This document shows positions 11,630 to 61,287 of a stretch of DNA of 64,000 nucleotides, one piece after another; the first letter of the stretch is position 1, and each line of letters starts with the position of its first letter. The notes below the pieces were generated by a model. It did not search any database. It worked only from the letters and a program-made list of their open reading frames with translations, and had not been told where the DNA came from. The translations under genes were made by a program, and so were the position numbers. Source of the stretch: Heptranchias perlo. Its lineage: Eukaryota. Location: positions 41,230,001 through 41,294,000 of the forward strand of contig NC_090342.1 of assembly GCF_035084215.1 (NCBI RefSeq). The letters run 5' to 3'.

Positions 11630-14600
11630 TCAACAGGAGGGGAGGAATAAGAGTGGCAGGGCTATATTGATAGGGGATTCAATTGCAAGGGGAACAGATG
11701 GGTGTTTCTGCGGCAGCAAACGTGACTCCAGGATGGAATGTTGCCTTCCTGGTGCTAGGGTCAAGGATGTCATGGAGTGGCTGCAGGGCATTCTGGAGGG
11801 GGAGAGTGAACAGCCAGTAGTCGTGGTCCATATCGATACCAACGACATAGGTTAAAAAGAAGGGATGAGGTCCTGCAAGGTGAATTTAAGGAGTTAGGAG
11901 ATATATTAAAAAGCAGGTCCTCAAAGTTAATGATCTCAGGATTACTACCAGTGCCACGTACCAGTGAGTATAGGAACCGAATAGACCGGATGAATGCGTG
12001 GCTGCAGGGATGATGTAGGAGGGAGGGATTTAGATTCCTGGGACATTGGGGACCGGTTCTGGGGAAGATGGGACCTTCCCCAGAACCGGAAGCGGGACGG
12101 GCTACACCCGAGCAGGACCGGGACCGACGTCCTTGCAGGGGTGCTTGCTAGTGCTGTTAGGGAAGGTTTAAACTAGAATGGCAGGGGGATGGGAACCTGA
12201 GCAGGGAGACAGAGGAAGGGGAAACAAGGATAGAAACAAAAGACAGAAAGGGACAAAGCAATAGTGGAAGGCAGAGAAAACAAGGGTGAAAAACAAATAG
12301 GGCCATAGTGCAAAATAAAACTAAGATGACTAGCAATCTTAAAAAGACAAGTGTAAAGGCATTGTGTCTAAATGTGCGGAGCATTCGCAATAAGCTAGAT
12401 GAATTAACAGCGCAGATAGATATTAATGGTTATAATATAGTTGCGATTACGGCGACATGGCTGCAGGGTGACCAAGGATGGGAACTGAACATCCAGTGGT
12501 ATTCAATATTTAGGAAGGACAGGCAAAAAGGGAAAGGAGGTGGGGTAGCATTGTGAGTAAAGGAGGAAATCAATGCAATAGTGAGGAAGGATATTGGCTC
12601 GGAAAATCACGATGTAGAATCTGTATGGGTGGAGCTAAGAAACACCGTGGGGCAGAAAACATTGGTGGGGGTTGTCTATAGGCCCCCAAACAGTAGTGGA
12701 TATGTAGGGGAGGGCATTAAACAGGAAATTAGAGATGTGTGCAAGAAGGGTACAACTATAATCATGGGTGACTTTAATCTACATATAGATTGGTCAAACC
12801 AAATTAGCAATAATACTGTGGGGGAGGAATTCCTGGAGTGTGTATGTGATGGTTTTCTAGACCAATACTTTGAGGAACCAACTAGAGAACAGGCGATCCT
12901 AGACTGGGTATTGTGCAATGGGAAAGGATTAATTAACAATCTTGTTGTGCGAGGTCCCTTAGGGAAGAGCGACCATAACCTCATTAAGATGGAAAGTGAA
13001 GTAGTTGAATCTAAACTAGGGTCCTGAATCTAAATAAAGGAAATTACGGAAGTATGAGGTGCGAGTTGGCTATGATAGATTGGGGAACTTTACTAAAAGG
13101 GATGACGGTGGATAGGCAATGGCTAATATTTAAAAGAACGTGTGCAGGAATTACAACAATTATTCATTCCTGTCTGGCACAAAAATAAAACAGGAAAAGT
13201 GGCTCAACTGTGGCTTACAAAAGAAATTAAGGATAGTATTAGATCCAAAGAGGAGGAATATAAAATTGCCAGAAAAAGCAGCAAGCTTGAGGATTGGGAG
13301 CAGTTCAGAATTCAGCAAAGGAGGACAAAGAGATTGATTAAGAGGGGATGAATAGAGTATGAGAGTAAACTAGCAGGGAACATAAAAACTGACTGTAAAA
13401 GCTTCTATAAATATGTCATGAGAAAAAGATTAGTGAAGACAAATGTAGGTCCCTTACAGTCAGAAATGGGGGAAATTATAATGAGGAACAAAGAAATGGC
13501 AGAACAATTAAACACATACTTTGGTTCTGTCTTCACAAAGGAGGACACAAATAACCTGCCAGAAATGTTAGGGAACCAAGGGTCTAGTGAGAGGGAGGAA
13601 CTGAAGGAAACCAGTATTAGTAACAAAAACAGTGCTAGAGAAATTAATGGGGCTAAAGGCTGACAAATCCCCAGGGCCTGATAATCTACATCCCAGAGTA
13701 TTAAAGTAAGTGGCCCTGGGAATAGTGGATGCATTGGTGACCATCTTCCAAAATTCTACAGACTCTGGAACAGTTCCTACAGATTGGAGGGTGGCAAATG
13801 TCACCCCACTATTTAAAAAAGGGAGAGAAAAAAACAGGGAATTACAGTTCAGTTAGCCTAACATCAGTAGTGGGGAAAATGCTAGAGTCTATTATAAAAG
13901 ATGTGATAATAAAACACTTAGAAGGCATTAATGGGATTGGACAAAGTCAGCATGGGTTTATGAAAGGGAAATCATGATTAACAAATCTACTGGAGTTTTT
14001 TGAGGATGTAACTAGTAGAATAGATAGGGGAGAACCAGTGGATGTGGTGTATTTGGATTTTCAGAAGGCTTTTGATAAGGTCCCACACAAGAGGTTAGTG
14101 TGCAAAATTAAAGCACATGAGATTGGGGTGGTGGGGGGGGGGGGGAATATACTGGCATGGATTGAGAATTGGTTGACAGACAGGAAGCAGAGAGTGGGAA
14201 TAAACGGGTCTTTTTCCGGGTGGCAGGAATGACTAGTGGGGTACCGCAGAGATCAGTGCTTGGGCCCCAGATAGTCACAATATATATCAATGATTTGGAT
14301 GAGGGATCTAAATGTAACATTTCCAAGTTTGCAGACGACACAAATCTGGGGTGGAATGTGAGCTTTGAGGAGGATGCAAAGAAGCTCCAATGTGATTTAG
14401 ACAAGTTGGGTGAGTGGGCAAGAACATGGCAGATGGAGTATAACGTGGATAAATGTGAGGTTATCCAGTTTGGTTGTAAAAACAGAAAGGCAGACTATTA
14501 TCTGAATGGTGATAGATTGGAAAAAGGGGAGGTGCAACAAGACCCGGGTGTCCTTGTATACCAGTCGCTGAAAGCGAGCATTCAGGTGCAGCAAGCAGTG

Positions 14601-19884: not shown

Positions 19885-20835
19885 TTTTTTTTATTATTCG
19901 TTCATGGGATGTGGGCGTCGCTGGCGAGGCCGGCATTTATTGCTCATCCCTAATTACCCTTGAGAAGGTGGTGGTGAGCCGCTTTCTTGAACCGCTGCAG
20001 TCCGTGTGGTGAAGGTTCTCCCACAGTGCTGTTAGGAAGGGAGTTCCAGGAATTTGACCCAGCGACGATGAAGGAATGGTGATATATTTCCAAGTCGGGA
20101 TCGTGTGTGACTTGGAGGGGAACGTGCAGGTGGTGGTGTTCCCATGTACCTGCTGCTCTTGTCCTTCTAGGTGGTAGAGGTCGCGGGTTTGGGAGGTGCT
20201 GTCGAAGAAGCCTTGGCGAGTTGCTACAGTGCATCCTGTGGATGGAACACACTGCAGCCACTGTGCGCCGGTGGTGAAGGGAGTGAATGATTAGGGTGGT
20301 GGATGGGGTGCCAATCAAGCGGGCTGCTTTGTCCTGGATGGTGTCGAGCTTCTTGATTGTTGTTAGAGCTGCACTCATCCAGGTAAGTGGACAGTATTCC
20401 ATCACACTCCTGACTTGTGCCTTGTAGATGGTGGAAAGGCTTTGGGGAAGTCAGGAGGTGAGTCACTCGCCGCAGAATACACAGCCTCTGACCTGCTCTT
20501 GTAGCCACAGTATTTATATGGCTGGTCCAGTTAAGTTTCTGGTCAATGGTGACCCCCAGGATGTTGATGGTGGGGGATTCGGCGATGGTAATGCCGTTGA
20601 ATGTTAAGGGGAGGTGGTTAGACACTCTCTTGTTGGAGATGGTCATTGCCTGGCACTTGTCTGGCGCGAATGTTACTTGCCACTTATGAGCCCAAGCCTG
20701 GATGTAGCCCAGGTCTTGCTGCATGCGGGCTCGGACTGCTTCATTATTTGAGGGGTTGCGAATGGAACTGAACACTGTGCAATCATCAGTGAACATCCCC
20801 ATTTCTGACCTTATAATGGAGGGAAGGTCATTGGG
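19885..20835 (-). mobile_element. 5'-truncated CR1/L2-group LINE (same family as 1695), nested in an older CR1
   Basis: ORFs 20224..20802 and 19950..20405 nearly match 1820..2668 with one frameshift; CR1 remnant continues on both sides (~19690-19880 and ~20835-21220). Confidence 0.88.
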
Positions 20836-21254
20836 ATTGTTTTTCTGGGTGAAAGACTATGAAATGACTTAATTGATTTTTTTTTTAAGATTATGAAAAC
20901 AACAGACAAATTTGATCCAGGCAAATTGTTGACAGTAGTGAGTGGTTCAAATACGAGGGGACACAGGTTTAAAGAGGGAGTTAGAAGTAGTAAGTCAGGC
21001 TGAATCTTCTCATCAAAGGAGAATAGCAATTGTGGAATAATTTACCAGGATAGGCTACTGAAGCAGACAGGACAAGTGGGTTCAATAGATAATTAAGTGT
21101 ATTTCTGGAAAGAGAAGCAATTAAGGGATGTGGTAAGATGGTGGTGGTTAACTGATGAAAAATTGACAGGGTTGTTTGACCTAATGGCCCTTCCTTGTTC
21201 CTAAAAAATCTTATATTTTTATGTTAAAGCAGTATATAATATATCTGTTCTTAC

Positions 21255-23592: not shown

Positions 23593-26500
23593 CTAGGGAG
23601 GAAGAAAACAGAGAATAGCAAGACCAGAGAAAATAAATGCTGCATTGTGCTGAAATGGTTCCAGCGGGCTATTTAAATCAGGAATATGATCGTTCTAAAA
23701 AACTGGTATTAATGCATGATAAGCTTACATTTAAAAAAATAAATACAACAAATCAAGTGCTGTGCAAGAGAATTCTTAAGCTGCCACTACTGAATTTGCT
23801 TTAGCCCTCACTACAAACTGGCCTTGTGTTTTATCTGTCTGCCTCCTGTAATGTTCATCATAACCATACTTCTTTATTCTGTAATACCCATGATCAGGAA
23901 CTGGAAAAAGGGCTGTATGCATTCAAAGGTATCCCCTTCTTGTTCATACATGAAATAGGCCCAAATGTATTACAAACCATCTTCACAAACAGCAGCAAGA
24001 AATACATGACCATTGTAAGCCTTCTGAGAGTGTGCACTGCCCAACTTAGCTGGTTTCAGGCCCCTGCCATTAATTTAAGAATCTCCTCTCAACTATTTAA
24101 AACAAAACTGAAGTGGGTCGAAAGCATACAAAAATATCTCAGCATCCAAAACAGGAGGTAGGTGAGTTTCCAGCGGCCCCATTTTTTCACTGCTGTGAAT
24201 TCTGCAGTGCAGCTTGCTAGTATCTATAGGGACAGGAGTTAAGCTATTAGGTCATTAAGTCAAACTCTCACAAGATCCAAATTTGCAATCCTTGTACAAA
24301 TTTGGTTCCCACTGGAAAAATTAAATGAGAATTTGGTCATATCATACCACTACAAAATAAATACTAATGTAGTTATAGCATTCTGCAAAATAAAGGCTAT
24401 CGTGGTTGCATAACATTCATATTATAAGCGCATCAGCCTTTAATCTGTATTCAGTGTTTTATTCCAGATGGTAACTATTAGAACAATAGCAGATCAGAAT
24501 GCGACTGTCAGTCAAATGGTAGCACAGCAATTACTATTTTCACTCTATGCACCAATGTTCACAGCCTAACCATAGTCCTTTGCAAATTGCTGCTGCAAAG
24601 TTCTGTACTCTTTTGCAGTATCGTATGGGACAGAACAATGTTTCAAACCTTGAAACTAACTGCAGTTTCCTAGGTTAAAAATAGCAGGAGGATTTTCTAC
24701 AGCTGGTTGGCAAAAACAGTGGCCAGCTTTTGGTGTAACGCTATCTTCAAAACACAATCTCATTTTTTTTACTAATAGCGTTTTAATGCAAAACCTTAGC
24801 TGCTGAGCATTACAGAGTTTGGACCCATTCACCTGCTACTCCTAACTAATGGAGAATAAGCAGAGGCTTTATGGGTGAGGAGGAGACGACATTTATTATA
24901 AATAGCTATAATATCACACTAAATTAATTACTAGAGCAAAAATGTTCCTGCATCAATGTCACATGGCACATTATACTTCAGCTCTTGTATCAATTGCTGG
25001 CCTCCAGCACCCTGTCACTTGAGAAAACTGACCTGCTGTGTAACCGAACAACATCTAGTTACTTGAACTTTTAACACTTACTGAAGTAAACAAATCCATG
25101 TTCTGATAAACCTCTCTTACATGAGGCTTCTGTAATAGCGTAGTTCATCATCTGATTCATGAATAGTTTAAAAAAAATCTCAATCCCAACTATAGGGAGA
25201 CAAATAAGTGCATTACACTCGAGATGATTAAAGCGAGGATGGTGTAACTAAAATTAAATGAAGCTTTGTTTGGTTCATACAGAGTAACGTTAGGTTGCCA
25301 GAATGTTATCAAGAAAGTTACTTTGTAGCTGCTAATGATTGCATCTCATGACATGAATAAAAGTCTCAATCTCAGCTTTAGACATGGCCTGTACTGTAAA
25401 AGGTACAAACATACGTTAATCAGAGTGCCTTTATCTAGCATTAGCAACAAAATAGATCTCCATTCAACATGTCACACGCAGGCTCAAACTCACAACCAAC
25501 GAATCAACTAAAATTGCAATACTACCTTCTTTTTTTCTGCTCTTTTTTGTCCCGCACAAGAGCCCTGCCATCTTTTTATTAACAGACAGTCATATATCCT
25601 AGCTACGTAGCATGCCAGCCCAGCTGCAGGGGAGAAGAGGTGCAGCTGGGCCAAGCATGAGATGCTTAACCAAGCACCACATGTGTCATTTCTGTCATTG
25701 TGACAGGGCTGTCACAATGACAGCAAGATGGCAGCACGAGACACATGCACTGATCACTAGCAATCTAAGCAACAAGAACACAGTCATCAGCATTCTGACA
25801 GACCCTTCTGACCTGCCTGCTCATTGTGTTTTACCCATCTGCAATGAATATTGAAGCAGAACATTTCCAGGTACATGGTGCACTGTGTACTAGATGAGCT
25901 AAAGATATTCTGAATAGAAAAAACAATAACTCATAGAATATTCTGATAATTTCAAATTATAAACCATAACTAAAGCTAGTTGCCTACTACAGTATATACA
26001 GTAATTGGAATGAATGCTCATTTATGATATTGTACTGCTCAGCTTTAATTGTATGTTGTAGGATCTTATTAGTACATTTGATGTCACTTAGTGTAGATTA
26101 TATCCCTAATTTAGAGAGACATTAAACAGTAAAATCTTAAGCACCAACTGATTCTCATTCTACTTAAATCACTATTAGTGGGGACAACCTGATAAATGAG
26201 ATTATGCTTCTTCAACAACAATGTCCCAATTACTGGGGCTCATCTGTAACATGACTGCAAATGTAAAGTTCAACCTGTTTTAACCAGATTAAAATTAACC
26301 TTTTTTGAGCTTTGCACGTCCTTTTTCAAAACATTCTGAAATTAGAGTAAGGAATTTGAATTTTTAAAATAGACTTAGATCCCGGGGTCATGGAAGCTCA
26401 TTTGCTGTATTCTCTCAATGGGACAAAAAGCTAATGTGCAAATTTTTACAGTCCTGAAATGTGTTAAATTTATTGTCAAACAGGATAATCAGCATATGCT

Positions 26501-29500
26501 TATGCACAATTTTGTTTTCTGTGTTGTGTAGCTTTGCTGTTCTATAAACATAATTGGAGTATTCGCTTCCATGAAGACAATCTGTAACAGTTTAGATCAT
26601 GAAGTATTGTCAATGTGAATGTATTCATCTTTGCATTAGTATTTTGGCATTCAAACAAGTAAAACAACCACTGGGCGAGCAGAGAGAAGGTATACAGTCA
26701 GGTCTGCAGTTGTAGTCCGATCGCAAATGCTGTTTTATTACAAAGCATTTCTCTAGAGGGAGATTGCCAACGAGCCTCGTTTTATTATTCATGTATGTGG
26801 CAACAGTGTACCAGAGTCCTAATGCAGCTATGTGTGGATACATCTGATATAATTACAGGCCTTTTTAACTAAGAGAACTACTGAAATACTTATCATTAAC
26901 ACTTACTAAACATATCTTTAATCTCTGCTCTCAAGATCAGCCATGATCTTATTAAATGCCAGAGCAGGCTTGAGGGGCCGTATGACTTCCTCTTGCTCCT
27001 AATTCTTATGTTCTCTTTGTAAAGAAAAGGTTTTTTAAATAAAAGATATAGCTTACTGTGCTGCTATTTTAAATGCTTTATGGGCACGCTACTGTTTGGA
27101 GTCCTGATTCCAAAATGGAGATCCTGCCAAAGTTAGGGAAAGATCAGGTCAAAGAAAGTGAATTTTCAATAGGGCAGTGTCTTCAGGAAAATGTATTTGG
27201 CAAAGTTTTTATTTTGAAGGGAGAAATTATGAATCGCCTGGAAATATACCGTACATTAACTCTCGTAAGGAAAACTTACATGTTGAAGTTAGCAATTTTT
27301 TTAAATGGTAAAATGACACTGAAATTGGAGTTTGAGTTGGTGCAGCTCCAAAAATGAGATGACCACCAGCAGCTTGTTCCGCAATACTAAGCCATTTAAT
27401 ATTCTCAATTACAGGGTACAGAATATGGCGCGCCACGAAGTCTGCACCAACAATATCTCACCAACAGTGCAAGGGTCAGCAGCAGTAAAAGCAGAAAATG
27501 AACTGGTAGCATGGGGAGACAGTAAGGGAATAAAAATGATTGACAGCCAGTCACACATCAAATTTAGTTTTACAGGAACTCAGGTCAAAAGAACAGTCGG
27601 GAGCATCTCTGCACCAGCTTCAGGGTTGCACTGCAGGTCACAATGACAGCAGAACAGTGTTTCTTCCTTTTTATTTTCGGTCTTGCTGGTGCTTTCGGTG
27701 CTAGAAAGAGATGATGAACTTCTATACTGATAAACATTCCACAATAGCATAGTGGAAGACTGCCAGATATAGAAGAGCCAGATATGAAATTATGGAGAAA
27801 CAGAGGGAACATAAACAGAACCAATTACAGTACTTGATAAGGTACACCAAAGCAAGTCAGGTTAAAGATACTCAATTTTGCTTTGCCCTTAACAGCGCAG
27901 AAAATATGATTTATGAACACGCTAGACAATTGCTGAAAGCCAACAAACCACATCCTCTGATCAACATCATAAACAGGGCATCGATATCATGAATGCACTT
28001 TGCTATTTTCTTTAATGGGGAGACGAAAAAAGAGTACCTGCAACCTCATGGCCTATCACAATATCATTTGCTTCAAAGTAACAGCAGCGCTGAAACCACT
28101 GCAGATGTAAAATGCTGCCCCCACCTCCACAAAAACCCAACCTTAAAACAACAAAGATATCGCACAACGAAGAAAGTATATATCCCATCATCCAATGATG
28201 GAAGAATTGGAGATTAAAAAGACAGGCACAAATGAATGTAACTGTTAAAAGTTAAATACTTGATAAATCTGTGCATGTTATATACATCCATTTTAAATTT
28301 CACGGGCCTGTAACGGGCAGTGAAAGCAATTTATATAATCAAGACTTGAAATTACCACAACTCTCAGAAGTAGGATCTACCAAATCAAAACATGCACTTC
28401 AACATCACATCTTGTGGTACATTAACTGCACTACAAGCTAACATTTTATTGCAATGTGGCTCAGGCTGATTAAGCAAGCTACCAGGAAGAATGCTCAGGG
28501 TGAGGTTGGTGGTGACCTGGAAATAGGCTACCCGTCTTTTGTGTGGAGGTGGTGCATGGCACAGACACACTAGGGGCACGGAGGAAAGAAACAAGATATT
28601 TAATTCCCCCACCACAAAATAAAGGTAAGTTGGCTGGTAGAGTCATGTAAAAAAAACGTTGCTGTCATGGCTTGTGATGTAATGAGAACTAGGGGAGTAC
28701 TAATTACAACACAAGCCATGACAGCAAAGCATTTTTGTTTATAATACATATGGCTTAATATATATGTTCTAATTCAAGATGCTGATTTGGGTCTAACTGA
28801 TGCAGCGTGGTCAAGTTGTTCTAGGCAATAGGGTAATAAAAAATTTGAGCTGTAAGAGGTTAAGCATGTGTAGCAATGTGTAAGTGGTATTATAGTAATG
28901 CCAGGTTCTTTTGTTTGGGAGAGAAGGAAGGAGACGCAGAATACAGAAAAATCTGCCATGGGTCATTCTGTTGATGTTGAGTGTGACAAATATCAAGTAT
29001 TTTGGTTAGTTTTTAGCTTGGTATTGGCCTCTTTAATTCATCATAATACTTAGGTTAAAAACTAGCTTCACTCAGAAACCTTGCCCCAGCTCAATTCGAA
29101 ACAATGTGCAATATTAGCTCGATCACTGAGAAGTCTGCTTGTGGGAGGAGCTAAGTCACTTAATTTAAATACAATCGTGATGTGCAATTAGTTCAGTTTT
29201 GTGCCTGATTAGAAGCTTTTCAAATTGAATAGACAGTTACAGAAATTCAGCCTGGCTCAAATTACTGTTTCTATCCAAATCTTTTGAGTTTTGATATGGA
29301 GCCTTCAAAGAGCAGTTATCTGATTGGAAACTTTGAAGAGAAATAGATAAACCAAAAACGTCTGTAGTTGGTAAGGAAAGGATTAATAAAATAACTGTTA
29401 AAAACAAGTAACTATGATCATAGTTTTAGCACAAGTAGTGAATGTTATTTCCTACTTTATACAAAGCACTGGTAAAGTTTAATTACTCTTAATATACATT

Positions 29501-35292: not shown

Positions 35293-36070
35293 TTTATCGC
35301 TGTCTCCCAGCCGACCCGCGCCCATCTCCCCCGATGCTGGCCCTGACCTATTCTGCGCCTTTCTTCATGGCCTCGCTGCTCTGCATCCACTCCCACTCTT
35401 CTTGCAGGCCCCATCCTAGACTTTGCTTTGCGGTCTTCCCACTCAGTCTGCAACACCCCTCACTCCATTTTGTGGCCATATCCACGTTTCTGTTGGCAGC
35501 CTTGTCACTCTTCCTTCCTGACCTACATCTCACTTCAGTCTTGCTGTTCAGCCTCCACACCTGCCCTATTCCTCGCCTTGGCTGTGGAACCCAACCTACA
35601 CCTTTATTGATGGTCTTGCCACTCCCACCCTCTTCATAATTAGCTCCTCTTCATAACCCTGGACCTCACTCAACAAAACCTGCGCCTTTGCCTCTACCAT
35701 CATTCCACTCTTCTGCGGCCTTGTAACTGAGCATCCACTCCTTTCACTGCCAGTATCTAGTACTAAGCTGGGAATAACCACCTGTGTTTTATTCATATTT
35801 AGAAATGTAAATATTCTAATTAATGACAGCTGTGAGACAAAAGAGAGGGACGAAGAAAAATAGAAAAACAAAGAGGCATGAAAGAGAGATAGGAGAGAAA
35901 ACGAGTTACACTAGTGGTGTCTTTTCTCATCCTAATTTGAGTTTAACAAAAAAAGTTGAATTTTGAATGCGAAACAAAGCCTCTAATTATCAACTGGTTA
36001 TCACCTCTTTGTTTAATAGTTAGAAAATGTAAACATTCTAAATTATTAATACCCATGGAGGGAAGCCAAT

Positions 36071-36838
36071 GGAGGCTTGGGCTCATAAGTGGCAAGTAAC
36101 TTTCGCGCCAGATAAGTGCCAGGCAATGACCATCTCCAACAAGAGAGAGTCTAAACACCACCCCTTGACATTCAACAGCATTACCATCGCCACCATTGAC
36201 CAGAAACTTAACTGGACCAGCCATATAAATACTGTGGCTACAAGAGCAGGTCAGAGGCTGGGTATTCTGCGGCGAGTGACTCACCTCCTGACTCCCCAAA
36301 GCCTTTCCACCATCTACAAGGCACAAGTCAGGAGTGTGATGGAATACTCTCCACTTGCTTGGATGAGTGCAGCTCCAACAACACTCAAGAAGCTCGACAC
36401 CATCCAAGATAAAGCAGCCTGCTTGATTGGCACCCCATCCACCACCATAAACATTCACTCCCTTCACCACCGGCGCAAAGTGGCTGCAGTGTGTACCATC
36501 CACAGGATGCACTGTAGCAACTCGCCAAGGCTTCTTCGACAGCACTTCCCAAACCCACGACCTCTACCACCTAGAAGGACAAGAGCAGCAGGTACATGGG
36601 AACAGCACCACCTGCACTTTCCCCTCCAAGTCACACACCATCCCGACTTGGAAATATATCGCCGTTCCTTCATCATCGCTGGGTCAAAATCCTGGAACTC
36701 CCTTCCTAACAGCACTGTGGGAGAACCGTCACCGCACGGACTGCAGCGGTTCAAGAAAGCGGCTCACCACCACCTTCTCAAGGGCAATAAATGCCGGCCT
36801 CGCCAGCAACGCCCACATCCCATGAACGAATAAAAAAA
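36071..36838 (+). mobile_element. 5'-truncated CR1/L2-group LINE (same family as 1695)
   Basis: ORF 36069..36833 nearly identical to 1820..2668 with internal deletions; A tail. Confidence 0.88.
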
Positions 36839-37124: not shown

Positions 37125-37550
37125 AGTTACATAGAATCTACAGCACAGAAACAGGTCATTCAGTCCAACTGGTATATGCTAGTGATTATATTCCACATGA
37201 GCTTCCTCCCACTAATTACCTCTTCCCAACCTGCCCCCATATCCGTCTATTCCCTCCTCCCTCATGTAAGCTTCAAGCCTCCCCTTAAATGAATCAATGC
37301 TAACTCCACGTAGCACCGAGTTCCACATTCTCGCCACTCTGAAGAAATTCCTCCTAAATTCTTTATTTGATCTATTAAAGGCTATCTTATATTTATGCCC
37401 CCTTGTTCTGGACTCACCCACAAGTGAAAATAGTTTCTGCACATCCAACCTATCGAGCCTCTTCATAATTTTGAAGACCTCTATCAGGTCTCCTCTTAAC
37501 CTCTTTTCTAGAGAAAAGAGCTCCAACCTGCTCAATCTTTCCTGATAGTG
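37125..37550 (-). mobile_element. CR1 3' fragment ending in the 43-bp tandem array
   Basis: ORF 37212..37535 RLELFSLEKRLRGDLIEVFKIM...TRGHKYK. Confidence 0.85.
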
Positions 37551-37808
37551 GCAGAGAAAAGAGCTCCAGCCTGCTCAATCTTTCCTGATAGTGGCAGAGA
37601 AAAGAGCTCCAGCCTGCTCAATCTTTCCTGATAGTGGCAGAGAAAAGAGCTCCAGCCTGCTCAATCTTTCCTGATAGTGGCAGAGAAAAGAGCTCCAGCC
37701 TGCTCAATCTTTCCTGATAGTGGCAGAGAAAAGAGCTCCAGCCTGCTCAATCTTTCCTGATAGTGGCAGAGAAAAGTGTCCCAGCCAGCTCAGTGTTTCC
37801 TGATAGCT
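37510..37808. repeat. 43-bp tandem repeat, ~6 near-identical copies plus 1 degenerate, derived from CR1 ORF2
   Basis: Unit AGAGAAAAGAGCTCCAGCCTGCTCAATCTTTCCTGATAGTGGC starting at 37510, 37553, 37596, 37639, 37682, 37725 and 37768. Confidence 0.93.
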
Positions 37809-40800: not shown

Positions 40801-42978
40801 CAGTATACCTATCATACACATATTTTATGCCAGTGTCAAGAGAATATGGTTTTACAGCTCAGGAATGCTTTTAAAAAAAGATATTTTTCTCCCCGCTTTA
40901 TCTTCAACCCTCTACACAGTCTAGTTGTCATGGACCATTTTCTAGTTGATAGAAAACTACTTACATCAGTGCTACTTCTGTCAATAATGCTCTGTGACTC
41001 ACCATCTGAAGGTATGCCTCAGTCTGAATTATTGATTTCTCCCTCCTTATGTCTGCATTCACTCATCACTTCGACAGACTGGCTGAAATCAGTCACTCGC
41101 CATACAGGGAATCACTGGAAGAGGACTAGCATAACAATGCGGTTTGAACACTAAAATCTCCAACATTTTCTTCACATATCATGTGGCTTCTCTTAATGTA
41201 CTGTTCTTAGTGGCATTTTGTTGATATAGCAAACAAAAATTAATGAATATAATTTATATTTGTCATGTGTGTGGAACAATGTATCGCACAAGAGTCTACA
41301 AATTCTCTTTTATAGAATGCACAAGATGAAAATATCAAGGGTACAAAGACCCTGTCTAAACATTCCTCCATAGGATAGGTCTCATATCAATTCTCCGATG
41401 CAACTTTTCCTCACAGTATGGCATTACATGAAGGCCATAAGCTCATTGTGTAGTGCTAGTTATGTACAATTATTGTAACAACTAAATGTTTCAACTATAT
41501 CCCTGCAAGTACTAATATTTGCAGACTGGGGTAATCTATGTACCTGCTTCGAATGGGATTTTAATTTTCTTTAATTTATGGTCAAACTGAACAGGCATTG
41601 AAACAAATATTGAAAGGGAAAGAAACAAATAAAAACTAGGAGAGAGAAAAAATAGTCGGGGGGGGGCAGCTGGCGGTAAGAATTTAAATGGCCACAAGAA
41701 TAAAATCACTTTTTCCCCCCTATTTTTATTGGCACTACACTTTGACTTTGAAATCCATGCATTGTGTCTGTGGACCAGCAATTCCGAAAAGATATCAAAC
41801 CTGAAAAAACGAGAGTCGGCTCTTGCATTGAAGAATACACCAGAATAAAAGTGGTCATGAATAAAATCATTTTTTCCTTTGAACTTTCAAGAGGTTCAAC
41901 ATACTTAGTTGCAGTGCATACACTTGCGATGGTAAAGGCCAGCTATTCAGGCTTTACCCCTTTTAAATAGATTTGTAGCTAAAGTGTAAAAGGTTTCCTA
42001 CCTCAAAAAACAGCGTCAATTTTTCTTATAAAAAAATACACTACAACCAAAATCATTACAACTATATTTTGATGTCCAGTGGCTTTATAAAATAATTTTT
42101 ACTGGCCTAATCACTTCCTAATGTTGCCAGCACTGCTATTTAGAATGACAATTCCAAGTACCTATGCCAACCCAACATGCAATTAGTGCACAACCACCTT
42201 TATTTTTATTTAAATAATCAGGACTTAGAAGCCACTAAATAAAATGGATTCCACTGCTGAGAAATATGAAGGGTACATTCAATACAACACTGGCCAAAAT
42301 TAAATGTTAGAAAGAATTACAGATACTCTTTCCTCAAAATATTCATTTGAGCACTATCCTAGGGAGGACTGGTATGAAAGAACTGCTGATCCCAGACAGT
42401 GGAGCAAATAAATTGACACTTCCCACTGGAGGCACAAGATTCTACTGTTGAAAACTCCATTTTTACATAGCTCTCTCACTGTGTCGGGCACAGGAACTCC
42501 TTCGAGTCAGTTACATCTAGCAATCTAAATTACCGTTTAGTGAAAAATATCATATAGCATTTGTAATGCTGAATTTCAGTGGTTGTGATCTGTAGAAGTC
42601 TATATTAAATAAGTCACAAATATTAAAATAGTGCAAAATTAATAAGTTTGTACGTTTGGCAACGTTATAAATATCGACTTTTATATAGCAAATTTAGAAA
42701 ATGTTCTAAGCTACTTCACAGAGAAGAAATGGATGACGAACGTTTGGGGAAAGGTTGAGAGAGGACTGTAAGCACAGAGAAAGGTTTTGACGATGCTTTT
42801 CAAGGCAGGGAGAGAAGAAACAAGCGCTTAGGGAGGGATTCTACTGATGGGTGAAAACTGCCATTAAAATGGAGCAGAGGAGTTGTGCAGCACATGAGTC
42901 AAATGGGATATAGAGCAGAAAGAGGTTAAAGGAATGCGGGAACCAATGATGTTGATTCTGAATGCTGCATTAATGCAA

Positions 42979-43155
42979 TTGTAAACAATTTTACAACACC
43001 AAGTTATAGTCCAACAATTTTATTTTAAAATCCACAAGCTTTCGGAGGCTTCCTCCTTCCTCAGGTGAATGTGGAAATGAAATCCTCGAACCTATCGCAC
43101 TTATAAATCACAGAACAATGCCTGGTGATTACAGATAGTCTTTTCAACTGCCCCT
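42979..43155 (-). mobile_element. Penelope-like terminal-repeat fragment with hammerhead and 13-bp target-site duplication
   Basis: Flanked by TGCATTAATGCAA at 42966-42978 and 43156-43168; shares ~90 nt with the 45051 element. Confidence 0.8.
43030..43070 (-). ncRNA. Minimal type-I hammerhead ribozyme motif (sense to PARVB pre-mRNA)
   Basis: Reverse complement AUUCAC CUGAGGA A GGAGG AAG CCUCC GAA AGCU U GUGGAU; differences from the other copies fall in loop II and a tolerated U-G pair in stem I. Confidence 0.75.
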
Positions 43156-43287
43156 TGCATTAATGCAAGGAAGCCAACAGAGGTTGGTGAGGAAAGTGAT
43201 GGTGAGCTTGCAGCAGAAATTCAGACGAGTTAGTGCATGGCAAAGCAAACATTGGAGAAGTCAAGTTTAGTGGTAACCAAAGATAAG

Positions 43288-43529
43288 GGGGGTGATTTTA
43301 AATCCCAAGAATGGGTGGGATGGGGGCAGGTGGGAGTTGAAATCAGTTGTTTTTCGGGTCACAACCGCAAAATCTTTGGATTTGGCATTCCCAGTGGGAA
43401 GCCTGTACTTTTCCGTGGCGACGTTAAACCCGGAAATAAAGCCGGGTTGCGGTCCTGACCCAAAAAACAACTGTCTTCAACTCCCACCCGCCCCCAACCC
43501 ACCTCTTCTTGGGGTTTAAAATCACCCCC
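43288..43529. mobile_element. MITE with ~80-bp terminal inverted repeats and 3-bp TSD (PIF/Harbinger-like)
   Basis: GGGGGTGATTTTAAA...CAACCGCAA mirrored by TTGCGGT...TTTAAAATCACCCCC; AAG on both flanks; interrupts an old L2-like remnant. Confidence 0.8.
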
Positions 43530-45138
43530 AAGGATTTTGGCTGTGCTCGAGGTAAGGTAAGGGCAGGGGTGGGTGCTGCGGTGGAAGTAAGCCATCTTGG
43601 TGATAGATCGGATAGTGGATTTCAAACTTAATTCAGAGTTGAAAAGAGCAATGAGGATGCGGGGGAAACTGAGTGTGGAGCTGAGTAGACTTTAGACAGG
43701 AAAGGGAGGTTAAAAATAAGGAACTCAATATAGAAAATGGGAGCAATCAATTTACTTCACAGGCATTTGAAAACTTCAACTTGTGAATAAAGCCTACGAT
43801 TATTAATTAATTCAGTACAACTAGGTTATTCACCATTTTGGAAATTCCAATTTTGTGTTTTCATCTAAACATTTATCTGTGAGCACTTTTCAGTTTATTT
43901 AGCATAAAGCTACATTCAGACACACTTCAAATACTAACTTGCAATTATAACAGACACTACTAATAAGGGTGGTGTGCACAGCTACAACTTGCTGGAGGGC
44001 AGTACTGATGGGTTGCTCAACCAACTGTGATCTCCAACCAAGTGCGCATGTACAACATTAACCTAGCTAGAAAGGCTTGTATCTACTCAGTCTTATCTTA
44101 CAGAATCACTTCCTTTTTCATTCATGCAACAAACTCATTTTGTACTTTTTCTACAAAATTTCTCTTTTTAAACTTACTGAGAAACACCAGCTGGGAAAAT
44201 ACAGCTGTGGTTTATTTGGTCACCTATACTGAAAATATTTAGTCTGTCAGAGTAGCGGGAGCACCACTTTACTTGTAATTTCTCTCTTTTAAATTGATAT
44301 TTTTAATTCAGCAAACCTGCTGTCATCCACACCAAATAAAGTAATGAAATTCCTTAACATAATGACCGCAGCATAAGCAAGTGTATTGTATACTATTTCA
44401 GCTGATGCAAAGGAAATCAGAGGTGTGGTTGTGTGTGGAATTTATTGGGTGGGGGGTTGGGGGGCTTAGCGGAAGAGAGGGGTTAATGCCTCAGAGTCAG
44501 GGGTCATAATTATTTCCTTAGAACCTCAATTTATCCCTTAGAAAAAAAAAGCGAAGTATATTTTGAAAAAAAAGACTTGTATTTTACATTGCGCCTTATT
44601 ACTTCTCTCAGAAAGTCTCAAAGTGCTTCACATGCAATGAATCACGACAAAGTGCGGTCACCAGTATTACATGGGTATTTCAGGTGCTTATGTGCACCCA
44701 AATGCAGTCATTTGAAACCAAGATCATGTCAACTGTTTGCCTAGCTGAAGTATTATAATCAGGATACTTTTTTTCTGGGTTTAAAGAGAGAACATTGTTA
44801 ATGAAATGTACCTTACTGAATGTAATCTGGGAGTTTGTATTCTGTACAGTCTTGCATTGAAAATAGGGACAAAATATTTTTCAATTATCAATGCATTTCC
44901 CACTTTACCTTTAACGTCCTAGCACCTCTTGGAAGGTCATAGGCAGGGCTGGTGAACCATCGGTATTTCTGCTTTTAATGATAGTCAAATATTTTTCAGT
45001 ACTTCTGCTCTTAATCTTTTATACTCAAAAACAATGACTCCAATTAGGGATGATGTGGAGATGCCAGTGATGGACTGGGGTTGACAATTGTAAACAATTT
45101 TACAACACCAAGTTATAGTCCAGCAATTTTATTTTAAA

Positions 45139-45177
45139 TTTACAAGCTTTCGGAGGCTACCTCCTTCCTCAGGTGAA
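45139..45177 (-). ncRNA. Minimal type-I hammerhead ribozyme motif, mirror copy (sense to PARVB pre-mRNA)
   Basis: Reverse complement UUCAC CUGAGGA A GGAGG UAG CCUCC GAA AGCU U GUAAA; one stem I mismatch. Confidence 0.68.
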
Positions 45178-45191
45178 CGATGTGCACATCG

Positions 45192-45230
45192 TTCACCTGA
45201 GGAAGGAGGTAGCCTCCGAAAGCTTGTGAA
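45192..45230 (+). ncRNA. Minimal type-I hammerhead ribozyme motif (Penelope-type)
   Basis: UUCAC CUGAGGA A GGAGG UAG CCUCC GAA AGCU U GUGAA: core CUGANGA and GAAA, 5-bp stem II, stem I UUCAC/GUGAA, palindromic AGCU in place of stem III; activity untested. Confidence 0.75.
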
Positions 45231-45499
45231 TTTAAAATAAAATTGCTGGACTATAACTTGGTGTTGTAAAATTGTTTACAATTGTCAACCCCAGTCCATC
45301 ACCAACTAAAATTCTGAATAGATTTTTCATTTAAAAATAATTAAGTTGTAAAAAGTGTAGTTTCATAAGGAGTAATTAAGGATAAGAAGCACTGCGAGCC
45401 TTTGTCCTTAAGTATTTAAAGCTCCTCCTAGTCACTCTATGTGCTAGTCAAATTGGGATCATTATGTAATAACAGCCACATAATTGCCCAGTTCAACAG

Positions 45500-46320
45500 C
45501 ACTTATCCCACTTTTAGACACTTCATTATCTAACAACCTTCCCAACTCTTCAAAATCCTCACTGTTTTCCTACTATCGCCCACCCATTTTTGCGTCCCCT
45601 ACGGAAATATCCTCCCTCTCTCCCCACTTGTCTTTGCACTGAGCGACTCCTCATCCGTGGCAATTTAATCTCCACCTGATTCATCCCACTCCATTTCTTC
45701 AGATTTCAGTCCCCCCTCCTCAGTCAACCTCTCTCATCACAATAGTTCTGTAACCTATATGCACTGCCACCTTCTTCACCTATGACAACTCAAAGATTTC
45801 AATTACCAAGTCATTTCTGATCATTTTCCCCAAACAATTCCCCTCTGCCCCTAGCCCCTCCACTCTCTCTACACTTCGGAAAAAAAACCTCAGTATTCTT
45901 ACTAGTGCCCTCTCTATCTCCTGACTCCTCCTCTTACGGTATGCCATCCGTGCTAACATTGACAGTTCCTTTGATTTGTTCCACAACTGCCTTGCCTCCA
46001 CTTTCAATGCCGTCATCCTGACAGATCCTAGTCATTCTCCCATCCCCAACACTCCCTTCATGGACTCAAATCTGTGATCCGCTGACTGGAACATACGTGG
46101 CATAGGATCAGTCTGGCTATTCACTGCCAAATCTGGTTAAACCACCAAGCAATACTGCCACTCCATCTCTGTAGTCAAATCCACCAATTACTCCAGATCA
46201 TCATGGAGATCAGGAACAACCACAGAATCCTTTTCTCTACCATGAACCACCTCTTCCAATCTTCCTCCATCCATCCTCACCCCCTATCCTAAATGGACTT
46301 ATTTGCTTTGCAGTATCAAG
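45500..46320 (+). mobile_element. Old L2-type LINE remnant
   Basis: C/T-rich strand resembling the reverse complement of 18370-19500. Confidence 0.55.
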
Positions 46321-52103: not shown

Positions 52104-53320
52104 CTGCACAGGGTAAAAAAAAATGGATTGTTACAACTGAAATTTTGGCCCAGTTATATTCAACATTAAATAGAAAATGAAAGGTCATACTCGACATTAA
52201 TTTTCTTTCTCTTTCAGATATCGATAAATCCTGTTGTGTATTTCTCGTATTTTCTATTTTTAATTTCAGATATCCACTCATGTTTTATCATTTTGTTTTT
52301 ATATCTAGCACTATATTACTACAGAACAGGTAGGAATCAATACAGCAGCTTGTCCAAGATATGAGCTCCCTTTCCAACAACAATGACATTACTGCGAGTT
52401 CAGTGAAATTCCTTCTGAGAAGAAATTAGTAACACCAACTTTACTATTTTATATCATGAGGTTGGGCTGCAAAGTAATGTAACAATGCCATCCAAGAAGG
52501 TGCTTAAGGATGTTTCTCATCAAGTTTTATGGTGTAAATGCACCAGAACATAAATAAAAATTAAAAGCAATTTTCAAAATACTTGGGAAACTTTTTTTTA
52601 GTCCCCATTGATTTACTGTACAGTAGTAAAACAAATTCAGACATCATGCTGGAGATAAGTCAGAACCCTGCCCATTCCTCTTCCCCCACCCCCACTTCCC
52701 CCTTCAACCTCCTCCTCACCCCCCCCCCCCATAAAAAAAGCTGTGAAGTCATAGTCTATTTATGTATTAGCAGCAAACTAGGGGCAGAAGGCAATGCAAG
52801 AGTTCCTCTTTAATGTTGTAGCAAAATCATTCACCCATTCCCATTCTTTATAATGGAGTTTTTTAATTTTGTTACATTTAGCCACAGAGAAAATCTTTTC
52901 CACTATTTTTGTTTCTCAACAGAGAACTGAAGGTACCAAAATGTTTAACACCAATACATTGACATTTGGACAGGTACGGTTACTTTTATATATTGAATCC
53001 TATACAGACAACACCTAAAAGGGAGGTAAGAGGAGAGTTACGATTATCCTGGAGACTTTCTTAGCCATATACCTAGTAAGTACATTTATACCAAAGGATT
53101 TAGTTCAATGTACACATATCTTAAATGTGCAGATATCAATAAATTTAAATGGTAATAAATGTTGTCTATTTTTCTTTCAAGTATAGAAATCAGCTAATAA
53201 ACTTTGCTTACAGCTTAATCCAAGTACACACAGTACATTTAAATAATCCATTATTAATTCCAAGCTAGATTTTAAAAAGTTTTAATCAACAAGACCAAAA
53301 ATGTGAGGAACTGTACTTAC

Positions 53321-53462
53321 CTATCACCACTTTGCACACCCATGGGAATACAATAGTTGAGTTCCAGCCTAGCGATGTTTCCCAGTCTCAGTACAATCCC
53401 GGCCCCATAGGACCATCGAATACATTCTGCCAGCTTCTGCAGGTGTGCATTGGGACCATCGC
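53321..53462 (-). CDS. SAMM50: SAMM50 coding exon ~14
   Basis: ttttgcag|GC GAT GGT...GAT AG|gtaagt; 142 nt; (G)[46 protein letters not shown](R). Confidence 0.96.
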
Positions 53463-53972
53463 CTGCAAAATTGATCAAAAATGTTTGTGTAGACATGAAA
53501 CAAACAGCATTTTCAGTTAAATTTTTTCAAAACATTGCTATCACTTTACAACATAAAAATGTGATTTTTCAATAACTTGGTACTGTTAAATGTAATTCAT
53601 ACATAGCTTCATCCTAGAGGAAATATCATGCCCTTGGAAGCCACTGCCATAAGTTAAAATGTTTATTTTGGGGGGGGGGGGGGGGGGGGGCGGAGGGGAG
53701 GAAAGCGAGAAATCTAAATGATGAGCAATGTGCCTCAAAGCAAACTACTGTATTCAAACCTAATTCCTGCTCGTCGATGTTTTAAATACAAATCAGAATA
53801 TGACTGATGTGTAATCTTTACCCGGAAGGACAGGGGACTACATTCCAGTATAATGAATTTTGTAAGTATTACTTATTTTTGCGATGCCAGGGAGCTTTCT
53901 TCTGCCAGCAAACAGAAACGACTAAACATTTATAAGAATAAAGTCTATTGCTTTATGTCACGTATATATAAG

Positions 53973-54048
53973 CCATGATGTGGAGATGCCGGTGATGGAC
54001 TGGGGTTGACAAATGTAAAGAATCTTACAACACCAGGTTATAGTCCAA
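53973..54048 (-). mobile_element. 76-bp terminal fragment of the same Penelope-like family with 11-bp TSD
   Basis: catgatgtggagatgccggtgatggactggggttgac...tatagtccaa matches 45051-45121; flanked by GTATATATAAG at 53962-53972 and 54049-54059. Confidence 0.78.
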
Positions 54049-54172
54049 GTATATATAAGGAACAGGGTGAATCAGTTGCTTGGCATTTCAGCTAATCCAT
54101 GTTGTATGAATCCCTACTAAAAAAAAACTTAAAAAGGAGCAGTCACCCATAGGACAAGTGTATCGGCCATAC

Positions 54173-54319
54173 CATAGTTGAGGTTACAAAGGTTGCCAGC
54201 ATTCAAAAAGAAGTGTGTTCTGAAAAGGTCTCCAAATCCTCCTTGGCCTGGACGGAAAGGCAGAGGTGTGTACAAGTGCAAACCTCCAGCCCAGTATGCT
54301 TCACCACCAAGGTAGTCCC
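54173..54319 (-). CDS. SAMM50: SAMM50 coding exon ~13
   Basis: Within ORF 54129..54356; gcaag|GG GAC TAC...TAT G|gtatg; 147 nt; [49 protein letters not shown]. Confidence 0.96.
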
Positions 54320-54534
54320 CTTGCACATTGGAGAAAGAGAAAGAACCAAGCCTCATTATATGATATACATTCTACACAATTAAACTCAAAACTTATTCAG
54401 CTTCTGAATTTTTACAATTGTCACGGATATTCATATAAACCTGGATTTTTTTTCTAAATATAAAAAGTACAAACACAAATCTAGAAGTATCACTTGTGAT
54501 CGAGAAGATCCGCGGGTAATACCAGCCTTGAGAC

Positions 54535-58081: not shown

Positions 58082-61000
58082 TTTGACCACAGAGATGGAG
58101 TGGTAGTATTGCTTGGTGGTTAAACCAAATTTGGCAGTGAACAGCCAGACTGATCATATGCCACACGTGTTCCAGTCAGTGGGTCACAGATTTCAATAGT
58201 TAGCACGGATTTCAAAAGGGAAGGTAATGCTTGATCAACCTTATTGAATTCTTTGAAGAATTAACAGAAAGGGTAGACATGCAGTAGATGTAATAAGAAT
58301 ACAAGAAATAGGAGCAGGATTAGGCCATATGACCCCTCAAGCCTGCTCCGCCATTTAATAAGATCATGGCTGTTCTTCCACCTCAAATTTACTTTCCCGC
58401 CCTATCCCCATATCCCTCGATTCCCTGAGTGCCCACAAATCTAATCGATCTTTCAGTCTTGAATATACTCAACGACTGAGCAGCCACAGTCCTCTGGGGT
58501 ACAGAAATCCAAAGATTCACAACCCTCTGAGTTTTTCCTCATCTCGGTCCTAAATGGCCGACCCCCAATATATTTGGATTTTCAAAAGACCTTCAATAAG
58601 CTACCGCATACTAGACTCATGACTAAGGTTAGAGCATGTGGAGTCAGGGAACATGTAGCAAGCTGGCTACAAAACAAAAAACAGGGAGTAGGGGTTAAAT
58701 GTAGTTACTCAGACTGGCAAAAGGTGGGTAGTGGTGTTCCACAGGGGTCGGTGCTGAGACCACCATTGTTCACTATTTACAGAAACAATTTGGACTCGGG
58801 AATCGGAAGTACAATTTCAATATTTAGGGACGACACCAAATTAGGGGGTATAGTTAATACTGAGGAGGACTGCGACAAAATACAAGAAGACATGAATAAA
58901 CTTGCAGAATGGGCGTGTAATTGGCAAATGAATTTCAATATAGATAAGTATGAGGTGGCACATTTTGGTAGGGAGAACAAGGAGGTCACATAATCCTTGG
59001 AAATTAAGAGTCTAAATGGGGCAGAGTAGAGGAATCTAGGGGTACAGATACTCAAATCAAAAAGTAGTGACGCAGGTTAAAAAGGCCATTAAAAAAAAGC
59101 AAACAAAGCACTGGGGTTCATTTCTAGAGGGATCGAATTGAAAAGCAGAGAAGTTATGCTAAACTTGTATAGAACCTTGGTTAGGCCACACTTGGGAGTA
59201 CTGTGAACAGTTCTGGTCTCCATATTATAAAAAGGATATAGAGACACTGAAGGTGCAAAAAAGATTTACTATGATGATACCAGAACTGAGAGGTTATACC
59301 TATTAGAAAAGACTGAACATGCTTCTTTACCCAGAGAACTCACTACCATAAGGAGTTGTTGAGGCAACTAGCATAGATGTGTTTATCTAACTTCCCTTTA
59401 AATGCATGAGGAAGAAAGGAATAAAAGGATATGTTGATGGGGTTAGATGAAGAAGAGTGGGAGGAGGCTTGTGTGGAGCATAAACACTGGCATGGACCTG
59501 TTTCTGTACTGTACATTCTAAGTAATACACCACTTTTTTTTCAATTTAATTATTTTTAAATGAAAAATCTATTCAGAATTTTAGTTGGTGATGGATGTCT
59601 CCTAATTGGAGTCACTGTCTTCTTGAGCATAAAAAGATTAAGAGCAGAGTCGCTGAAAAATGAGTATCATTAAAGGCAGAAATACCAATGGTTCATCAAC
59701 CCTGCCTAAGGCCTTCCAAGAGATGCTAAGACATCAAGGGTAAAGTGGGAAATGCAATGATTATTGAAAAATACTAAAAAAATATTTTGCTCTTATTTTC
59801 AATGCAAAACTGTATAGAATACCAACTCCCAGGTTAGTCAGTAGATACTTTTAATTAACAAAGTTCTCTTTTTAAACCTAGAAAAAAAGTATCCCGATTG
59901 TAATACTTCAGTTACGCAGACAGTTGACATGATCTTTATTTGAGATGGCAGCATTTGGGTGCACATAAGCACCTGAAATGCCTGTGTAACAGTGGTGACC
60001 GCACTTCGTAGTGATTCATGACACGTGAAGCACTTTGAGACATTTCCGAGAGACGTAATAAGGCGCAATGTAAAATACAAATCTTTTTTTTTCAAAATAT
60101 ACCTTGCATTTTTTTTTCTCTAAGGGACATATTGATGTGCTACGGAAAATAATTGTGACCCCTGACTCTCAGTGTGAGGCATTAACCCCTCTCTTCTGCT
60201 AAGGCCCCCCTCCCCCCCAAATAAATTCCACACACAACCACACCACTGATTTCCTTTGCATCAGGTGAAATAGTGTACAATACAGTTTCTTATACTGCAG
60301 TCATTATGTTAAGGAATTTCATTACTTTATCTGGTGGTGTTGACAGCAGGTTTGCTGAATTAAAAATATCAGTTTAAAAGAGAGAAATTACAAGCAAAAG
60401 TGCTCTTGCTACTCTCACAGACTAAATATTTTCAGTATGAATGACCAAATAGACCACAGCTGTATTTTCTCAGCTGATGTTTCTCGGTAAGTTTAAAAAG
60501 AGAATTTTTGTAGAAGTACAAAATGAGTTTGTTCCATGACTGAAAAAGGAAGTGATTCTGCAAGTCTGAGTAGATACAAGCCTTTCCAGCTAGGTTAATG
60601 TTGTACATACACACTAGGATGGAGATCACAATTGGTTGAGCAACCCATCAGTACTGCCCTCCAGCAAGATTTAGCTATGCACCCCACCCTTATTATTAGC
60701 GTCTGTTATAACATGTTAATGTTGAACCCTTCCACATCCAATCATAATGAAATACTGAATATTAAGTTCTGCTTTTGTTTTTTGCTTATTTGTTAGTGAA
60801 ACAAAAAAACAGTATCAAACCTCATCGTTTTCATTTACAAAATTGCTAGATGGTTAATAATTGCTATTTAACCAGAAACTAAATTGCAAGCTAGTATTTG
60901 AAGTGTGTCTGAATGTAGCTTTGTGCTAAATAAACTGAAAAGTGCTCAAAAATAAATGTTTAGATGAAAACACAAAATTGGAAATTCCAAAAATGGTGAA

Positions 61001-61287
61001 TAACCCAGTTGTACTGAATTAATTAAAAACTGTAGGCTTTATTCACAAGTTGAAGTTTTCAATATGGCAGCTGTGAAGTAAATTGATTGCTCCCATTTTC
61101 TACATTGACTTCCTTATTTTTAACCTCCCAGTTCTAACTAAAGTCTACTCTGCTCCACACTCAGCTTTTCCCGCATCCTCAGTAACCTTTTCAACTCTGA
61201 ACTAAGTTCAAAATCCTCTAACCTATCCATCACCAAGACTGCTTACTTCCACCGCAACAGCACCTACCCCTGCTCTTACCTCACCTC
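58082..61287. repeat. Inverted segmental duplication, arm B (SAMM50 intron 12), interrupted by CR1 sequence
   Basis: For example 60635-60666 gttgagcaacccatcagtactgccctccagca is the reverse complement of ~43990-44021; collinear over ~1.7 kb. Confidence 0.88.
58200..59522 (+). mobile_element. Decayed CR1 RT fragment with nested minus-strand 3' tail (~58275-58566)
   Basis: ORF 58574..58993 DFQKTF.K.PH...SGVPQGSVL.P.LF. Confidence 0.85.

Follow-up and report, generated by a model that had tools for sequence, protein, structure and literature searches.

Results

The host gene and the palindrome

The window, by which we mean the whole 64,000-nucleotide stretch of Heptranchias perlo DNA that was analysed, has a GC content of 39-40% and contains many decayed LINE-type RT frames. 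Three copies of a 5´-truncated LINE-type RT fragment (1646-2668, 19950-20856 and 36042-36833; 90-95% identical) suggest a relatively recent LINE family, and a tandem repeat with a period of ~86 nt and 94-97% identity lies inside a LINE fragment at 37510-37806. The parvin gene is found on the minus strand. A naive exon scan returned 262 candidates, mostly noise, and only the separately confirmed parvin-like ones were kept. One exon of 20 amino acids is identical to beta-parvin at 20/20 positions and to alpha-parvin at 19/20 (PDB), confirming the assignment of the locus to PARVB pre-mRNA that was made in an earlier note on this DNA. The locus falls within a long intron of this gene, which contains no coding exon, as judged from phase compatibility and from general knowledge of the parvin proteins:

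23593-49256, minus strand: host intron of the beta-parvin gene, 25,664 nt long and flanked by two coding exons of compatible phase

Self-comparison of the window bore out the spacerless palindrome that had been described in this intron, with arms of 118 bp at 45067-45184 and 45185-45302, a spacer of 0 and a single arm-to-arm mismatch (45141 T / 45228 G). The runner-up among near-perfect palindromes in the window has arms of only 17 bp. Shorter, imperfect palindromes at 28650-28736, 25689-25726 and ~12055-12085 are unrelated to the hammerhead family described below, as is an older inverted repeat at 43288-43529 (83-nt arms, 88% complementary, 76-nt spacer, G-rich termini) that looks like a MITE. 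The extent first given for the unit, 45051..45303, needs correction: the element-derived DNA spans 45050-45294, and the rest of the right arm (45295-45302) belongs to the target while also matching the element. The parts are as follows, where PLE stands for Penelope-like element and the assignment is the one argued for in the Discussion:

45050-45184, minus strand: left arm, a putative PLE terminal repeat (pLTR) of 135 nt, 5´-truncated and with the full 3´ tail
45050-45084, minus strand: tail of 35 nt, AC-rich (69% A+C), with a small stem-loop
45185-45294, plus strand: right arm, an inverted copy of the left-arm terminus of 110 nt that stops 10 nt into the tail
45295-45303, no strand: microhomology, 8-9 bp of target DNA that is present in the empty paralog and also matches the element tail

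The left arm is probably first-strand cDNA. Its 3´ end, at 45050, is the same point as the 3´ end of another copy at 54 kb, and its minus-strand sense is the sense of the parvin pre-mRNA. The last 17 nt of the tail (45050-45066) are unpaired in the palindrome; only part of the tail is found in the right arm and none of it in a further copy at 43 kb. AATAAA occurs at 45236 (plus strand) and at 45128-45133 (minus strand).

Hammerhead motifs

Each arm carries a motif of the minimal type-I hammerhead kind:

45191-45231, plus strand: right-arm hammerhead, intact minimal type-I, predicted cut at 45225/45226
45138-45178, minus strand: left-arm hammerhead, minimal type-I, predicted cut after 45144

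In the right arm, stem I has 6 bp, stem II has 5 bp and a palindromic AGCU replaces stem III; the cut site derived from our descriptor is the one that had been predicted for the plus strand. C3 of the core is at 45197 (plus) and 45172 (minus). One extra nucleotide precedes the 5-bp stem II, loop II has 3 nt, and GAAA-GC-U-U follows. The core agrees with the consensus of metazoan PLE minimal hammerheads in each listed feature, namely CUGANGA...GAAA...UH, type-I topology, the extra nucleotide between 9 and 10.1, the G10.1-C11.1 pair, the palindromic 15.2-16.2 and the AU-rich 3´ flank, and the identification as PLE-type minimal hammerheads is upheld by this agreement. In a published alignment, the GAAA-G-C-U-U core with AAUAAA directly after it is also seen in a turtle motif (PMC4209133). 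The earlier view of one hammerhead per arm stands in so far as both cores fit the consensus, but stem I of the left-arm motif carries a C-A mismatch that results from the change at 45141.

A strict descriptor gave two matches in the whole window (45197+ and 43064-), and permitting one mismatch in stem I gave three, the added one being 45172-. The descriptor was composed after the motif had been seen, but it was modelled on the published consensus, and in 200 dinucleotide shuffles it gave a mean of 0.02 matches per window in its strict form (maximum 1) and 0.085 in its relaxed form (maximum 2). Covariance models did not recover the motifs: the Rfam hammerhead models gave no match, either at the gathering score over the whole window or at E<=10, probably owing to the missing stem III. 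Matches to miRNA families in the Rfam search were below the gathering score and were dismissed as generic long-hairpin matches. The right arm alone is no more stable than shuffled sequences (z -0.75 to -1.62). With Rfam negative and no unusual stability in an isolated arm, it is the core motif on which the identification as a ribozyme is based. An exact scan of 185,579 prokaryotic genomes with the ribozyme pattern gave 0 matches.

The empty site

An inverted counterpart of the region, without the insertion, is present in the window and allows the junctions to be read from BLAST and end-anchored alignments of the filled versus the empty site:

59536-61287, minus strand: paralog without the insertion, counterpart of 43549-45354, inverted, 86-89% identical

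The empty site lies at ~59595-59601. Both flanks of the insertion continue colinearly in the paralog, where ~5 bp separate them. The empty site already contains the terminal 8 bp of the right arm (9 in comparison with the 54-kb copy), and the insert is therefore 45050-45294; correspondingly, the microhomology measures 8 nt against the left arm and 9 nt against the 54-kb copy. The insertion has no TSD, carries the full tail on the left arm only, and is accompanied by a target loss of ~5 bp, a figure that is approximate since the paralog is only 86-89% identical. The earlier reading as a fold-back insertion is supported. The inverted duplicate as a whole spans at least 1.8 kb (43549-45354 versus 61287-59536; 46068-46179 versus 58193-58082; 86-90% identical), with the first parvin coding exon between its halves. 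It may represent a local duplication or a repeat that has not been recognised as such, and it served here solely as the empty site.

Long-read chimeras are known to give rise to perfect palindromes without a spacer, and an artefact of assembly or reads was considered on this account. The colinearity of both flanks with the empty paralog, the end asymmetry, which is of the PLE-insertion type, and the arm-to-arm mismatch leave a fold-back chimera with next to no probability.

Other copies of the family

A self-search of the window revealed two further copies of the family, both non-palindromic and within 9 kb of the palindrome:

42979-43155, minus strand: 43-kb copy, no tail; intact hammerhead with C3 at 43064 and predicted cut after 43036
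53973-54048, minus strand: 54-kb copy, 3´-terminal ~75 nt with tail; no ribozyme

The 43-kb copy is flanked by a TSD of 13 bp (42966-42978 / 43156-43168), 3 nt of which overlap the end of the element, and the 54-kb copy by an AT-rich TSD of 11 bp (53962-53972 / 54049-54059); the chance of shared words this long, estimated from 20,000 random flank pairs, is 0.00055 and 0.0008, respectively. All three insertions in the window thus have defined junctions, two with these TSDs and one with the microhomology of 8-9 bp. The A+T contents of the targets are 69%, 82% and 57% versus 60% for the window, the third site not being AT-enriched. Two alternative 3´ ends, 35 nt apart, are used among the three insertions, the 43-kb copy being without the last 35 nt. 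From the TSDs, the truncation and the two 3´ ends, we infer that the family is a 5´-truncating retroelement with alternative 3´ ends. The distance from stem II to the tail end is 115 nt.

The 54-kb copy is located in the intron between two Omp85-domain frames (53320-53526 and 54132-54371, minus strand) that are probably late exons of SAMM50, which presumably adjoins PARVB. The final triplet of its tail (53973-53984, minus strand) is ATG, preceded by A at -3 and followed by G at +4; the ORF of the parent element may have begun at this codon.

The insertion had been called young. This holds only in relative terms: the arms differ by one mismatch, versus 5/73 and ~3-4 substitutions per 100 nt, in addition to indels, when they are compared with the other copies, and the arms of a palindrome can be homogenised.

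The same two copies bear on the proposal that the unit is a small non-autonomous ribozyme element, palindromic (MITE-like or fold-back) and multiplying as such. In rotifers, palindromes of 18 and 38 bp are described from the 5´ ends of pLTRs, with possible propagation of one copy of this type (PMC3846280). In the window, 0/2 of the other copies are palindromic and the 43-kb copy runs ~80 nt past the palindrome centre into extra upstream sequence. The absence of a TSD in comparison with the empty site, the asymmetric ends and a right end set by the target also argue against such an element, which we consider highly unlikely. A MITE or fold-back DNA transposon was rejected on the asymmetry, the lack of a TSD and the non-palindromic other copies in the window.

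Predicted folding of transcripts

The full hairpin is predicted to fold at -215 to -216 kcal/mol, and exposing the ribozyme would cost ~71 kcal/mol. Ribozyme stem probabilities are 0.0 at 4/4 transcript lengths on each strand, such that the masking of the ribozyme by dsRNA that was foreseen in the earlier note is borne out by these models, in which all figures are equilibrium predictions and not kinetics. When the arms are folded alone, the right arm reaches a stem probability of 0.98 and the left arm one of 0.008 (inner stem-I pair), and the motif folds at -5.8 kcal/mol in the left arm versus -12.2 kcal/mol in the right arm. The parvin-sense arm is the damaged one, with the stem-I mismatch. 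Owing to the head-to-head arrangement, transcription of either strand yields the antisense arm before the ribozyme arm, and the latter would therefore be sequestered in the ~118-bp hairpin on emergence and should not cleave. By these predictions, the unit is most likely an inert passenger that forms intronic dsRNA. It would be plausible for such a palindrome to be edited or diced as RNA, or to extrude a cruciform as DNA.

Two observations concern the parvin transcript more broadly. First, the intact hammerhead of the 43-kb copy (43030-43070, minus strand) lies in the same intron and sense, 2.1 kb downstream of the palindrome, and is the only unmasked ribozyme in the parvin pre-mRNA; it could pair with the antisense right arm at -153 kcal/mol versus -213 kcal/mol for the left arm. 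Second, the right-arm antisense reads as a polypyrimidine tract followed by a CAG acceptor, and the change at 45141 creates a weak GTAAAT donor, giving a frame-shifting cryptic exon candidate of 53 nt in the parvin sense (45196-45144, minus strand) that is buried in the hairpin stem.

One may ask whether the unit has been co-opted for regulation of beta-parvin, as an active ribozyme, an intronic poly(A) site or a functional edited or diced dsRNA. It sits in the pre-mRNA, its gene-sense arm bears AATAAA, and the second, same-sense hammerhead with intact stems could in principle pair with it through AGCU. A dsRNA of the length of the ~118-bp hairpin is a plausible ADAR substrate. Against this, the ribozyme is masked in the hairpin, the sense ribozyme has the stem-I mismatch, and in a cofold of the left-arm and 43-kb motifs the AGCU helix is not part of the MFE structure. 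Further, PLE minimal hammerheads are reported as inactive monomers with weak cleavage as dimers (PMC4209133), and the anole hammerhead needs protein to cleave (PMC11167929). Taken together, these points make co-option a very remote prospect.

Discussion

Origin of the palindrome

We conclude with considerable confidence that the unit is one abortive PLE insertion, composed of a 5´-truncated terminal repeat and an inverted, head-to-head copy of it, with a tail on one side. The inverted head-to-head arrangement is an already known kind of PLE insertion. For PLEs, inverted pLTRs, one-sided tails and either TSDs of 9-10 bp or microhomology junctions have been described (PMC3846280; PMC8557442), and the junction palindromes of head-to-head repeats in rotifers were ascribed to self-priming on an antisense template (PMC3846280). 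Membership in the PLEs rests on the ribozyme, tail, truncation and junction features, because no PLE ORF could be linked to the unit from the window. The GIY-YIG family was matched by 0/105 translations in the window, and a search for RT among 96 frames at 39-55 kb gave only one weak match in a LINE region. Protein searches with two translations of the element, one of 48 aa that spans the centre and one of 42 aa from the 43-kb copy, returned nothing; both frames are probably non-coding, and these blanks say nothing on family size or junction recurrence.

Based on PLE biochemistry, the insertion may have come about as follows. An endonuclease would have nicked AT-rich DNA, and RT would have started at the tail end, at 45050. 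The cDNA would then have halted at a length of 135 nt, having passed stem I of the hammerhead by 7 nt. Provided that the insertion is of the abortive kind proposed, the 3´ end of the cDNA has probably folded back and been copied to give the spacerless inverted arm. The new end is joined to the far side of the target via the 8-9 bp of microhomology, as the sequence of the junction shows, with ~5 bp of target lost and no TSD made. Finally, a single substitution would have arisen later in the left arm. The hammerheads would be passengers of the terminal repeat throughout. The two arms differ from the 43-kb copy at identical positions, as copying from one template would predict. The 43-kb copy aligns up to the palindrome centre with a 3-nt gap and diverges beyond, so that a small, asymmetric loop would be expected from a simple fold-back, unless later corrected. 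What counts against fold-back is that the centre is perfectly symmetrical, with no small loop.

Twin priming, known for L1, would be a different route to the second arm. It would replace the fold-back and joining steps and leave the identity of the insertion unchanged: both strands are nicked, the far 3´ end anneals to element RNA over 8-9 nt and primes a second cDNA, and the two cDNAs are joined head-to-head. The anole PLE protein is reported to cleave and extend both strands and is a predicted dimer (PMC11167929), and the right junction here is exactly a match of target and RNA. However, microhomology-mediated end joining yields an identical junction, the end point of the two arms is identical to the nucleotide, every diagnostic difference from the 43-kb copy is common to both, and the 43-kb copy shows that templates can extend past that point. 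The equal end points and shared variants favour one template, and twin priming is accordingly regarded as unlikely. A literature search, with most subscription journals, Repbase and Dfam outside its scope, found no paper on twin priming for PLEs and none on this family in cartilaginous fish.

As a single locus, the abortive insertion matters little, since it is the dead end of a retrotransposon within a long intron. What modest value it has concerns mechanism, in that the nucleotide-level junctions of three copies and an empty site are found in one window. A genome-wide tally of junctions could separate cDNA fold-back from twin priming and could reveal if hairpins of this kind supply edited or diced RNA that acts against the family. 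How PLEs make tandem and inverted structures is described as still undefined (PMC8557442). A bolder but unlikely idea is that the locus and the in-window empty site record how PLE inverted repeats form, with a dimeric PLE protein twin-priming via the 8-9-nt match in the tail stem-loop, and with such self-silencing palindromes arising routinely as a by-product and supplying dsRNA directed against the family. Should the junction pattern recur genome-wide, an open step in PLE transposition becomes directly testable.

Comparison with known systems

The unit resembles non-LTR retrozymes in being ORF-less, in having a type-I hammerhead, in its size of a few hundred bp and in its relation to PLEs (PMC7229834; bioRxiv 10.64898/2026.07.22.740005). 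Retrozymes are proposed PLE derivatives and are reported from a chondrichthyan genome (bioRxiv 10.64898/2026.07.22.740005). They are built from tandem head-to-tail hammerhead repeats that give circular RNA, and their same-strand ribozymes can dimerise, whereas the unit is head-to-head and self-silencing. Head-to-tail tandem hammerhead repeats were not found within the window, and at 40-56 kb there is no tandem array of the unit (1 unrelated 22-nt repeat). Membership in the retrozymes was rejected on this basis, and as an explanation of the locus a retrozyme has only a slim chance.

The motifs are like the metazoan PLE minimal hammerheads (PMC4209133) in CUGANGA with an extra nucleotide, G10.1-C11.1, GAAA, the palindromic N15.2-N16.2, UH, a short stem I and an AU-rich 3´ flank. 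This family is absent among the species rows examined in the supplement of that paper. Pairs of minimal hammerheads on opposite strands, 100-700 bp apart, were reported there in 2014; unlike these, the cores found here are 25 nt apart and fully complementary.

Poseidon PAc of Anolis carolinensis (PMC11167929) shares with the present family an AC-rich end ~115 nt after the hammerhead, two 3´ ends separated by the tail, and AT-rich targets. In the anole element, an AC-rich stem-loop holds two RT start sites with the tail between them, and RT initiation is given as 111-118 nt from stem II, where the ORF starts; the 115 nt measured here from stem II to the tail end compare with this range, which applies to one of the two start sites. 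The ORF of PAc begins from stem II, and no ATG is present at stem II here. Judging from the 54-kb copy, the start codon of the parent element is likely to lie at the tail end instead.

In overall layout, the insertion is like those of Pen2, Pen2a and Pen3a of Adineta, which are endonuclease-containing PLEs (PMC3846280; scheme in PMC8557442) and have a head-to-head inverted terminal repeat with a palindrome at the junction, a 30-40-nt tail on one end, TSD or microhomology junctions and AT-rich targets. A tail of 30-40 nt is described as an optional part of PLEs (PMC8557442). The insertion in H. perlo differs from the Adineta elements in its extreme truncation, with no ORF left, such that the palindrome constitutes the whole insertion.
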